Positions 62,437-63,343 of a stretch of DNA of 64,000 nt are shown in pieces. Below the pieces are notes generated by a model. The model worked only from the letters and a program-made list of their open reading frames with translations, was not told the DNA's origin and ran no database searches. Location: the sequence record NC_025447.1; one strand, given 5' to 3'. This DNA is from Escherichia phage 121Q. How positions within the stretch are numbered: position 1 is the first letter of the stretch; every line of letters starts with the position of its first letter. The position numbers and the translations under genes are program-made.

Positions 62437-62445
62437 TGCTATAAT
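62437..62445 (+). promoter_or_regulatory. extended -10 promoter element upstream of the methyltransferase
   Basis: TGCTATAAT embedded in the 14-bp palindrome TATAATATATTATA (62440-62453). Confidence 0.45.
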
Positions 62446-62482
62446 ATATTATAGTACCTTAACAATATAAAAAGGATTTTAT

Positions 62483-63343
62483 ATGAAACCTATCCGAGTA
62501 CTTTCTCTTTTTAATGGAATGAGTGTGGGATATATGGCATTGCAAGATGCTGGTATCCCAGTTGAAAAATATTATTCATCCGAAATTGATAAGTACGCAA
62601 TAGCTGAATCTCAATCTAACTTTCCTGATATTATCCAATTGGGTGATGTAACTAAGTGGAGAGAATGGGATATTGAGTGGGACAAAATAGATTTATTAAT
62701 GGGTGGTTTCCCATGCCAAGCCTGGTCAGTTGCAGGTAAACAGGGTGGTTTAAATGATATACGTGGGCAGTTATTTTTAGTAATGGTTGAAATTTTTGAT
62801 CATATCAAAAGTCTCAATCCTAACTTGAAATTTCTGTTTGAAAATGTTAAAATGAAGGAAGATTTCAAAGAATACATTAATAGTATTTTAGGAATCACGC
62901 CAGTACTGATAAACTCCCAGCATTATACGCCTCACTTCAGGCAGAGATATTACTGGTACAGTACTGATAAGCTTTTTATACCACCTGCATTATCCAATGC
63001 ACCTAAACTTCAAGATATTATTGAAGATGGTTGGTACACTGACAGAACCGCTTCGTACTGTATAGATGCTAACTATTTTAAAGGTGGTGATTGTAACCAG
63101 TACTTTAATAAATCCAGACGACAATTGGTGTTTCGTGATCCAGTGATTAATCGTCAATATCTATTAGAGAATGGCAAAAGAAATATTGACTATAGACACT
63201 TAAGTGTAGTAGAATGTTGTAAATTACAGGGTGTTCCTGAAGATTTCTTTAAAGTGTCTAGTAAGACACAAGCATACAAAATGCTTGGGAATGGATGGAC
63301 TATGCCAGTTATATCACATTTACTAAGAGAGATATTCTTTTGA
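62483..63343 (+). CDS. DNA (cytosine-5)-methyltransferase (orphan)
   Basis: Motif I region [10 protein letters not shown], motif IV [8 protein letters not shown], motif VI ENVK; no adjacent restriction endonuclease. Confidence 0.8.
   Translation: [286 protein letters not shown]

Follow-up and report, generated by a model that had tools for sequence, protein, structure and literature searches.

Why a jumbo coliphage should keep a cytosine methyltransferase that has no restriction enzyme beside it, and whether the palindrome in front of the gene controls its expression, are the questions raised by positions 62437-63343 of a stretch of 64,000 nucleotides (nt) from Escherichia phage 121Q (NC_025447.1), which at its full length is referred to here as the window. 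Sequence comparisons support an orphan C5-cytosine methyltransferase gene that is intact and under selection, and whose product has a compact recognition region. Its enzymatic activity, timing of expression, target motif and protective role are what we infer from them, and we consider it likely that the methylase is active and protects the phage DNA early in infection, with CCWGG as the most likely target.

An intact and conserved orphan methyltransferase gene

A 286-residue methylase carrying an ENVK motif had been called in a preliminary description of this DNA, and such a gene is indeed found at 62483..63343 on the + strand, with an ATG start and a ribosome-binding site, AAGGA (62472-62476), located 6 nt upstream of it. 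Besides AAGGA, the region upstream of the open reading frame (ORF) holds the string TGCTATAATATATTATAG, and AAAAGGATTTT(A/C)(T/C) followed by the start codon is kept from Asteriusvirus to the phages GAP32 and Hallingskeid. The protein matches Pfam PF00145, its sole Pfam domain, with an E-value of 4.6e-38 and 131.9 bits (cut-off 22), and NCBIfam TIGR00675 with 119.1 bits (cut-off 100.65). All the diagnostic C5-methyltransferase motifs can be read from the translation in canonical order: motif I, beginning at residue 4 (F10-N-G12-MSVG), motif IV (GGFP77-C78-QAWS), motif VI (E120-N-V-K), motif VIII (R153-Q-R155-YYW), motif IX (R238-HLSVVE244, then LQGVPEDF) and motif X (G269-N270-GWTMPV). The codon of the catalytic Cys78 lies at 62714-62716 and those of ENV at 62840-62848 (+ strand). 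A CCWGG site at 62721-62725, formed by the Ala-Trp codons of motif IV (GCC TGG), is probably coincidental.

An inactive catalytic motif, which the preliminary description had named as fatal to its proposal, did not come to light on closer alignment. In an alignment of 42 members (the methylase plus 41 relatives reaching down to ~50% identity) the catalytic residues are invariant, as are F10/G12, P77-C78, E120-N-V, R153/R155, R238/E244 and G269-N270. An AlphaFold2 model of the protein has a mean predicted local distance difference test score (pLDDT) of 94 and a predicted template modelling score (pTM) of 0.91. The ratio of nonsynonymous to synonymous substitution rates is 0.073, 0.036 and 0.068 in comparisons with the related genomes BF17, Turkey5 and EJP2, respectively, and the gene is under strong purifying selection.

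The short target-recognition domain that had been suggested from the size of the protein is borne out, only ~75 residues separating motifs VIII and IX in a protein whose total length is that of the catalytic domain of DNMT3. In the columns of the 42-member alignment this target-recognition region (TRD) spans residues ~160-236 (62960..63190, + strand) and consists of a core, D187-R-x-x-S-Y-C193-I-D-A-N-Y-x-K-G-G...K210-S-R-R-Q, followed by a variable tail. The core columns are invariant or near-invariant family-wide, and the core is nearly identical in the orthologues of Hallingskeid, GAP32, EJP2, RaK2 and phi92.

The observation that no restriction endonuclease is adjacent to the gene also stands, since none of the flanking ORFs matched a nuclease in Pfam, NCBIfam or PADLOC. 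Those checked were the ORFs at 62140-62430 and 61840-62100, the small-ORF array further upstream, the downstream ORF at 63295-63825 and the next two genes in phage G17; they had no match of any kind in these three collections, and their PHROG families are all of unknown function. Across 80 viral loci no conserved partner family was found, no neighbour cluster being common to more than 17 loci. Among 122 neighbour ORFs of family members in bacterial genomes, the recurrent families were N6 and N4 methylases, helicases, integrases, resolvases, terminases, SSB, DNA polymerase and HNH/NUMOD4 homing endonucleases, and restriction-endonuclease families were absent among the 25 most frequent of the 86 Pfam families represented. 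Judging from these neighbourhoods, orphanhood is a trait of the whole methylase family.

In the methylase genes of phages UE-S1, JNE01 and A4 (UE-S1 segment 1684-3321, JNE01 segment 1690-3321 and A4 segment 1918-3555) an in-frame intein of ~340 residues is inserted between GGFP and CQAWS. It starts with CFPAGT or CFPEGT, ends with VVHN and contains Hint and LAGLIDADG domains. Because the insertion is located right before Cys78, the +1 splice nucleophile would be the catalytic Cys of motif IV, and the intein-bearing alleles would yield methylase only by precise splicing, which argues that the product is needed. The allele in the window is free of intein and its homing site, 62711-62716, is a potential homing target. 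The intein-free allele of the window and the intein-bearing sister alleles form a natural homing pair at the catalytic cysteine.

Placement of the phage and of the enzyme

The earlier description had viewed the gene within a T4-like frame, which is correct as to distant relationship and incorrect as to the kind of phage, which is an Asteriusvirus jumbo phage. Jumbo phages of this type are considered to descend, at a great distance, from T4-like phages (PMC11780129). The window, with a GC content of 33.5%, encodes a T4-type large terminase and gp32-like, RecA/UvsX-like, DnaQ-like exonuclease and UvsW-like helicase proteins, and, by synteny with BF17 and Turkey5, primase, a DnaB-like helicase, ribonucleotide reductase, DHFR, RNase H, topoisomerase II and a clamp-loader subunit. 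The failure to see a dCMP hydroxymethylase was confirmed in the regions inspected: the annotation of the syntenic 50 kb in BF17 and Turkey5 lists none, and the large ORFs within the first 15 kb include none. A pathway to hydroxymethyl-C, the modified base of many T4-like phages, is accordingly not seen there. For phAPEC6, thymidylate synthase, dCMP deaminase, a dNMP kinase and two methylases (N6-adenine and C5) have been described in the paper on that phage.

The 2.2 kb around the gene is 99.4-99.6% identical to about 20 Asteriusvirus jumbo coliphages with genomes of 320-385 kb, including PBECO4, phAPEC6, slurp01, SP27, G17 and Sharanji; for the published genomes of PBECO4, 121Q, phAPEC6, slurp01, G17, Sharanji and UE-S1, DNA identity over the locus is 99.4-100%. 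A public cluster of 37 sequences, P0001, which bears the name 'DNA cytosine methyltransferase', matches the protein at 100% identity. Dozens of GenBank records annotate the gene, and the papers on phAPEC6, Sharanji and UE-S1 mention a putative protective C5 methylase (PMC7247149, PMC11895373, PMC12805682). The gene call is not new, as the identical protein has already been annotated and discussed. The published Asteriusvirus genomes carry the same gene with no difference; the papers give annotation only, and the automated names found in the records ('HaeIII methylase', 'HpaII', 'DNMT2') do not establish specificity.

PHROG 116 ('DNA methyltransferase') spans the whole protein, and homologues are numerous (more than 8000 proteins with E-values below 1e-5, and matches in 351 phage records). 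The orthologues of RaK2-like jumbo phages (GAP32, Hallingskeid, RaK2) share 63-78% identity, that of CBB having been matched by DNA; homologues are found at 51% identity in phi92-like phages, 44% in ICP1-like vibriophages, 35-40% in Bacteroides, Cellulophaga and Pseudoalteromonas phages and ~30% in RB16/RB43-like T4 relatives. A scan of IMG/VR for close relatives returned only RaK2 and distant members, and served the neighbourhood test, not an analysis of polymorphism. Many bacterial genomes carry members of the family, with neighbours there that resemble prophage or mobile-element genes.

The designation of the enzyme as Dcm-type is acceptable at the level of the superfamily, and possibly of specificity, and fails at that of the subfamily. 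The model of E. coli Dcm, NF007772 (~470 residues with an N-terminal extension), gave 21.4 bits against a cut-off of 710, only residues 68-123 matching, and the family profile matched the 482-residue 'cytosine-specific methyltransferase' chains 3me5/3lx6, which we take to be a Dcm-type enzyme, with an E-value of ~1e-11 over only ~60 residues around motif IV. By these comparisons the methylase is outside the E. coli Dcm/M.EcoRII subfamily. With Dcm and M.EcoRII it shares the chemistry and possibly the recognition sequence and product, and Dcm is likewise an orphan; the phage enzyme differs in having no N-terminal extension. The neighbouring ORFs are without any protein-family match, hence no vsr gene is among them.

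Among solved structures, the best matches in both sequence and fold are the catalytic domains of DNMT3A, DNMT3B and DNMT3C. A phmmer search gave E-values of ~3e-23 for DNMT3, over residues 2-282, and ~1e-17 for HaeIII and HhaI; with the family profile they were 1.2e-36 for DNMT3, 7e-31 for HhaI and 3e-27 for HaeIII. In Foldseek the top 50 matches were all DNMT3, with TM-scores of ~0.8 and 25-27% identity. Shared with DNMT3 are the motif I variant LSLF(D/N)G, a motif VIII of the form RxRY(Y/F)W, a motif X of the form G-x-(G/S)-W-(S/T)-x-PVI-x-HL, the size of ~285 residues and the very small TRD, and the N-terminus (34 residues) aligns with its DNMT3C counterpart. The PWWP and ADD domains through which DNMT3 is regulated are missing from the phage enzyme, as is a partner of the DNMT3L type; the lead of DNMT3 over M.HhaI is modest (~19 bits), identity to DNMT3 being just 25-27%. 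From sequence and predicted fold, the methylase looks like a DNMT3 catalytic domain and is not a DNMT3. A virome annotation based on KEGG already labels similar phage genes 'DNMT3A' (PMC11309003), and the Chlorella-virus enzyme M.CviAIV has been reported to cluster with Dnmt3 (PMC3227630).

Promoter and transcription unit

The -10 element that had been proposed ahead of the methylase is well supported. It is a perfect extended -10, TGCTATAAT (62437..62445, + strand), located 38 nt upstream of the ATG and predicted to be of the sigma-70 type, that is, used by host RNA polymerase early in infection; it is kept in G17, UE-S1, BF17, JNE01 and Turkey5. The promoter scan gave TTGGAA, an 18-nt spacer and TATAAT with TG present, amounting to 10 matches out of 12. 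The -35-like hexamer TTGGAA (62416..62421, + strand), with an A-tract before it, falls within the 3'-terminal part of the preceding ORF, 62140-62430. This hexamer is probably dispensable beside an extended -10, because it degenerates to CTGGAA in BF17 and to CTGGAT in JNE01 and Turkey5.

The sequence TGNTATAAT is enriched threefold in the window, with 24 copies against 8.4 +/- 2.5 expected, a number reached in 0 of 100 shuffles, the coding (+) strand accounting for 20 of them. Intergenic copies on this strand are found at 5208, 5283, 10459, 15313, 21703, 27400, 44785 and 62437, the last one being that of the methylase, and in six of these eight the TG is preceded by an A-rich stretch and, at a distance of 13 nt, by a GGGACA-like hexamer, for which a weaker variant, GGAAGA, is found in the methylase copy. 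It is credible, from enrichment and position, that this family represents early promoters for host RNA polymerase, the methylase promoter included. A further copy of TGCTATAAT, at 57024, was considered as a paralogous promoter cassette and discarded, since it lies inside an apparent signal-peptide-like coding start.

A segment of ~35 nt holding the -10 element and the palindrome discussed below is absent in EJP2, GAP32, Hallingskeid and RaK2, and the last three differ from the window in that no dedicated promoter or palindrome precedes the gene, the intergenic spacer being of just 20-30 nt. In EJP2 the upstream stop codon is directly followed by the ribosome-binding site, so that the segment (62431-62465 in the window, compared with EJP2 segment 1503-1520) is an indel. 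At the same spot, phage A4 carries an insert of ~290 bp (A4 segment 1632-1917) in which a GC-rich hairpin and then a T-run are found just upstream of the methylase ribosome-binding site. The spacer before the methylase is a hot spot of small cassette turnover.

Read-through from upstream is likely, because nothing terminates transcription upstream of the methylase. Downstream, a terminator-like hairpin formed by AAATCCACGC-ATT-GCGTGGATTT and followed by a T-run is located at 63830..63858. The scan reported the 10-pair hairpin on the - strand; we read it as a + strand terminator because the stem is a palindrome, and the G17 record annotates the equivalent + strand terminator (ARNOLD). Lying after the second ORF, this hairpin would define a two-gene unit.

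The second gene of the unit is an ORF of 176 residues from an ATG at 63295 (63295..63825, + strand), which matches phrog_28599 over its full length and phrog_21045 in part, both of unknown function, and is not recognisable as a nuclease in the Pfam, NCBIfam, PADLOC or PHROG searches. Its start is ambiguous: G17 annotates the ATG, which makes it overlap the methylase by 49 nt, and BF17 and Turkey5 annotate a start 3 nt past the methylase stop. An alternative TTG at 63340 overlaps the TGA stop of the methylase (TTGA), which suggests that translation of the two ORFs may be coupled.

Target motif and role of the methylase

CCWGG is our best guess for the target, with about an even chance of being correct. 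A comparison is provided by the Erwinia jumbo phage Hallingskeid, whose CDS_0275 is a 78%-identical orthologue with a nearly identical TRD core. In Nanopore sequencing of its native versus amplified virion DNA, only N6-methyladenine (6mA) at GATC and 5-methylcytosine (5mC) at CCWGG were detected, and this phage encodes exactly two methylases; Kaldavass, with three, presented GATC, CCWGG and TGCAT (PMC11780129). The orthologues of Hallingskeid, Kaldavass, GAP32, CBB and RaK2 (63-78% identity, same length, TRD core nearly identical) are likewise located in a block of small early genes. EcoRII, an enzyme sensitive to Dcm methylation, cut the DNA of a phage grown on Pantoea, which like Erwinia is one of the Erwiniaceae (PMC8306585), so that Dcm methylation of phage DNA is missing in at least one host of this family.

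The recorded host of Sharanji, one of the near-identical phages, is E. coli K-12 MG1655. This strain presumably has McrBC, McrA and Mrr. For McrBC the 5mC must be preceded by a purine, so that products of the GGCC, AGCT or RCG type would be self-defeating, and a C-5mC product fits an MG1655 host. C-5mC-WGG is the modification that the host itself carries.

Under the reading that we favour, host RNA polymerase with sigma-70 would transcribe the methylase gene, one of a long series of early genes running in the same direction, from the extended -10 of the gene itself. Transcripts reading through from promoters further upstream would probably contribute as well, and one small downstream ORF would be included in the unit, which would end at the terminator at ~63850. 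As expected for the family, Cys78 would attack C6 of the flipped-out cytosine and Glu120 would protonate N3, a methyl group being transferred to C5 from S-adenosylmethionine. Replicating phage DNA, with its cytosines otherwise unmodified, would become methylated at a short motif through the compact, family-conserved TRD, and this motif would be shielded from host restriction, complementing a very strong avoidance of other restriction sites. Methylation of the inner cytosine of CCWGG would yield the same product as host Dcm, block enzymes of the EcoRII type and make no purine-5mC for McrBC. In this way the methylase would cover a frequent 5-bp site that is hard to purge (32 CCWGG remain), and it might ensure that a 350-kb genome is fully modified even though its replication outpaces host Dcm, or in dcm- hosts.

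The avoidance referred to is considerable. GCGC is missing from the 64 kb, where 23 occurrences are expected, CCGG occurs 9 times versus 22 expected and GATC 105 times versus 227, and 27 of the 64 palindromic hexamers are missing from the window, including CTGCAG, CAGCTG, GGTACC, CCATGG and GGATCC, with expectations of 5-10 each. GCGC is also absent from every segment of RaK2-like jumbo phages examined (Asteriusvirus lineages down to 78% identity, RaK2, GAP32, Hallingskeid and EJP2), and it is present in phi92. Its absence could be due to host restriction pressure or to a phage nuclease.

Several observations weigh against this reading. The authors of PMC11780129 caution that host Dam and Dcm might account for the motifs detected. 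The methylase is unrelated to E. coli Dcm/M.EcoRII beyond the superfamily, so that an identical specificity cannot be argued from homology, and hosts for which a role like that of Dcm is harder to envisage, among them Vibrio, Bacteroides, Cellulophaga and Paenibacillus, have phages and prophages with the same TRD core. CCWGG is slightly under-represented in the window (32 observed, 52 expected) though it would be protected. The -35 is weak, and EJP2 and other genera lack the promoter segment, so that read-through alone can evidently express the gene. Phages of the phi92 type are reported to be unusually vulnerable to the restriction systems assayed in the BASEL study (PMC8594841). They carry the 51%-identical homologue of the methylase. 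To our knowledge, none of those restriction systems is CCWGG-specific. Experimental work on the methylase or a close orthologue was not found in the literature, nor were biochemically characterised homologues from ICP1, phi92/BASEL, CBB or Asteriusvirus, and the supplement of PMC11780129 adds nothing in this respect.

Substitution spectra add a further point of this kind, as no C-to-T hypermutability was observed at CCWG or at any dinucleotide in what is a low-power test. The window was compared with two 97%-identical genomes, changes being polarised by two 83%-identical outgroups, which rendered 981 polarised changes, 218 of them C-to-T. The C-to-T rates were flat (CpG 0.021, GpC 0.017, CCWG 0.024, overall 0.019), and CCWGG sites were well conserved in this comparison. 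The flat spectra argue weakly against methylation at the level of CpG or GpC dinucleotides. Power is too low to derive a target of 4-6 bp from them, and a three-way comparison with BF17 and Turkey5, at 78-83% identity over the window, is too saturated to polarise. Deriving the target from sites that are not avoided (GGCC, CGCG, ACGT, TCGA) was considered and rejected.

It can also be the case that the orphan methylase is protective with a target other than CCWGG, either another motif of 4-6 bp or a short degenerate one, and that the CCWGG signal of the relatives comes from host Dcm, the possibility that the authors of PMC11780129 did not exclude. We regard this as rather unlikely. It would agree with the similarity of fold to the CpG-specific DNMT3 enzymes, with a very small DNMT3-like recognition region, from which a different or short degenerate motif might be expected, and with the spread of the family over hosts that have no Dcm; the non-avoided GGCC, CGCG, ACGT and TCGA could then be protected sites. 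However, Hallingskeid showed just GATC and CCWGG despite a nearly identical TRD core, and a second 5mC motif should have appeared there. Purine-5mC products (GGCC, AGCT, RCG) should moreover be targets of McrBC, and yet the near-identical Sharanji is recorded on MG1655, while C-to-T changes are not raised at CpG, so that the CpG specificity of DNMT3 is not indicated for the phage enzyme, nor at GpC.

Orphan methylases of a comparable logic, duplicating the specificity of the host on fast-replicating phage DNA, are known from T4, T2 and P1. These Dam-type enzymes are N6-adenine methylases, a class unrelated to the phage C5 methylase, and the likeness is functional only. Alternatively, by analogy with P1 Dam at pac, the modification might serve the biology of the phage itself and not anti-restriction, as a mark for packaging, replication or late transcription, or in distinguishing self from non-self against a phage nuclease. 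Most E. coli already possess Dcm, for which reason protection alone would be partly superfluous, the absolute lack of GCGC hints at unexplored nuclease or modification biology, and the phi92-like carriers of the homologue are not broadly resistant to restriction, all of which would suit this proposal. We nevertheless find it improbable: the methylase family is not accompanied by any conserved linked gene for a nuclease, packaging or regulation, the methylase is located among early genes and not with the terminase or late genes, and phage orphan methylases are generally read as anti-restriction (Murphy et al. 2013, as cited in PMC11309003). Protection of phage DNA early in infection continues to be the interpretation that we prefer.

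The palindrome overlapping the -10 element

The perfect 14-bp palindrome TATAATATATTATA that had been pointed out at 62440-62453 is present, and extends to a perfect 16-mer, CTATAATATATTATAG (62439..62454, both strands), made up of the -10 hexamer and its inverted copy. It had been put forward as a plausible operator, a proposal that comparison does not support. Were CTATAATATATTATAG a true operator, a dimeric regulator or the methylase itself would bind across the -10 and shut the promoter, as in autoregulation of the C-protein or M.SsoII/M.EcoRII type. The dyad does overlap the -10 hexamer exactly, and its outer arms, CTATAA...TTATAG, survive in the 83%-identity lineage of JNE01 and Turkey5. 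Palindromes of this length are, however, expected by chance in such AT-rich DNA: the window contains 3 perfect palindromes of at least 16 bp, versus 1.8 +/- 1.3 in second-order Markov simulations, 31% of which have at least 3. The centre is mutated in the BF17 lineage (TATAATGTATTATA) and the arms are re-spaced in JNE01 and Turkey5 (CTATAATGAATTTATAG), with no compensatory change. What is conserved is the -10 element together with TATAGTAC directly downstream, not the symmetry, and no common dyad was found among the other promoters of the TGNTATAAT family.

The remaining evidence concerns the molecules that would have to act on the palindrome. EJP2, GAP32, Hallingskeid and RaK2, which are devoid of the segment, all retain the methylase gene. 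The methylase begins at motif I, without the N-terminal DNA-binding region of autoregulating methylases, which for M.SsoII corresponds to residues 1-71 (PMC3978073). No helix-turn-helix-like neighbour was detected among the flanking ORFs in the Pfam and PHROG searches. An operator is therefore not demonstrable here and we consider it very improbable; the palindrome would be a by-product of the AT-rich -10 region.

A function of the palindrome as an RNA hairpin was also considered and rejected. The hairpin that would form in read-through RNA is weak (-4.8 kcal/mol), and the predicted transcript start falls inside the palindrome: a start ~7 nt past the -10 would lie in the right arm, so that the own mRNA of the methylase would have no hairpin in its 5' untranslated region.

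GTAC follows the methylase palindrome directly (TATAGTACC) and is also found after the -10 element at 9453. This tetranucleotide is over-represented in the window (336 versus 257 expected; AGTACT, 108 versus 82), and it forms the centre of 7 among the 37 perfect palindromes that measure 12 bp or more (for example at 465-478, 1433-1444, 19037-19050, 56816-56829 and 59632-59643).

Neighbouring genes

Directly upstream of the methylase unit, at 58099-61825 (+ strand), there is a tandem array of eight small ORFs of 125-183 residues. They are weakly alike, with 13-22% identity to the first ORF, and seven of the eight have the C-terminal motif (T/S)EExxFQxS(L/T)(I/V). The array appears to be a lineage-specific paralogous family of unknown function.

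Implications

The combination of an extreme avoidance of restriction sites with one or two orphan methylases is a candidate explanation of how these jumbo coliphages, which are therapeutic candidates, withstand host restriction. If the CCWGG target were confirmed, it would represent a second, unrelated route to Dcm-type recognition, on a DNMT3-like minimal scaffold. As a wider and tentative possibility, to which we give less than an even chance, the enzyme may belong to a large clade of minimal DNMT3-like methylases of phages and prophages in which CCWGG specificity evolved independently of Dcm/EcoRII through a core of ~50 residues, and which would rank with the nearest relatives that eukaryotic de novo methyltransferases have in prokaryotic viruses. 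Were this the case, the clade would offer a compact model for the way in which small TRDs of the DNMT3 type read DNA, as well as a data point on the origin of DNMT3.

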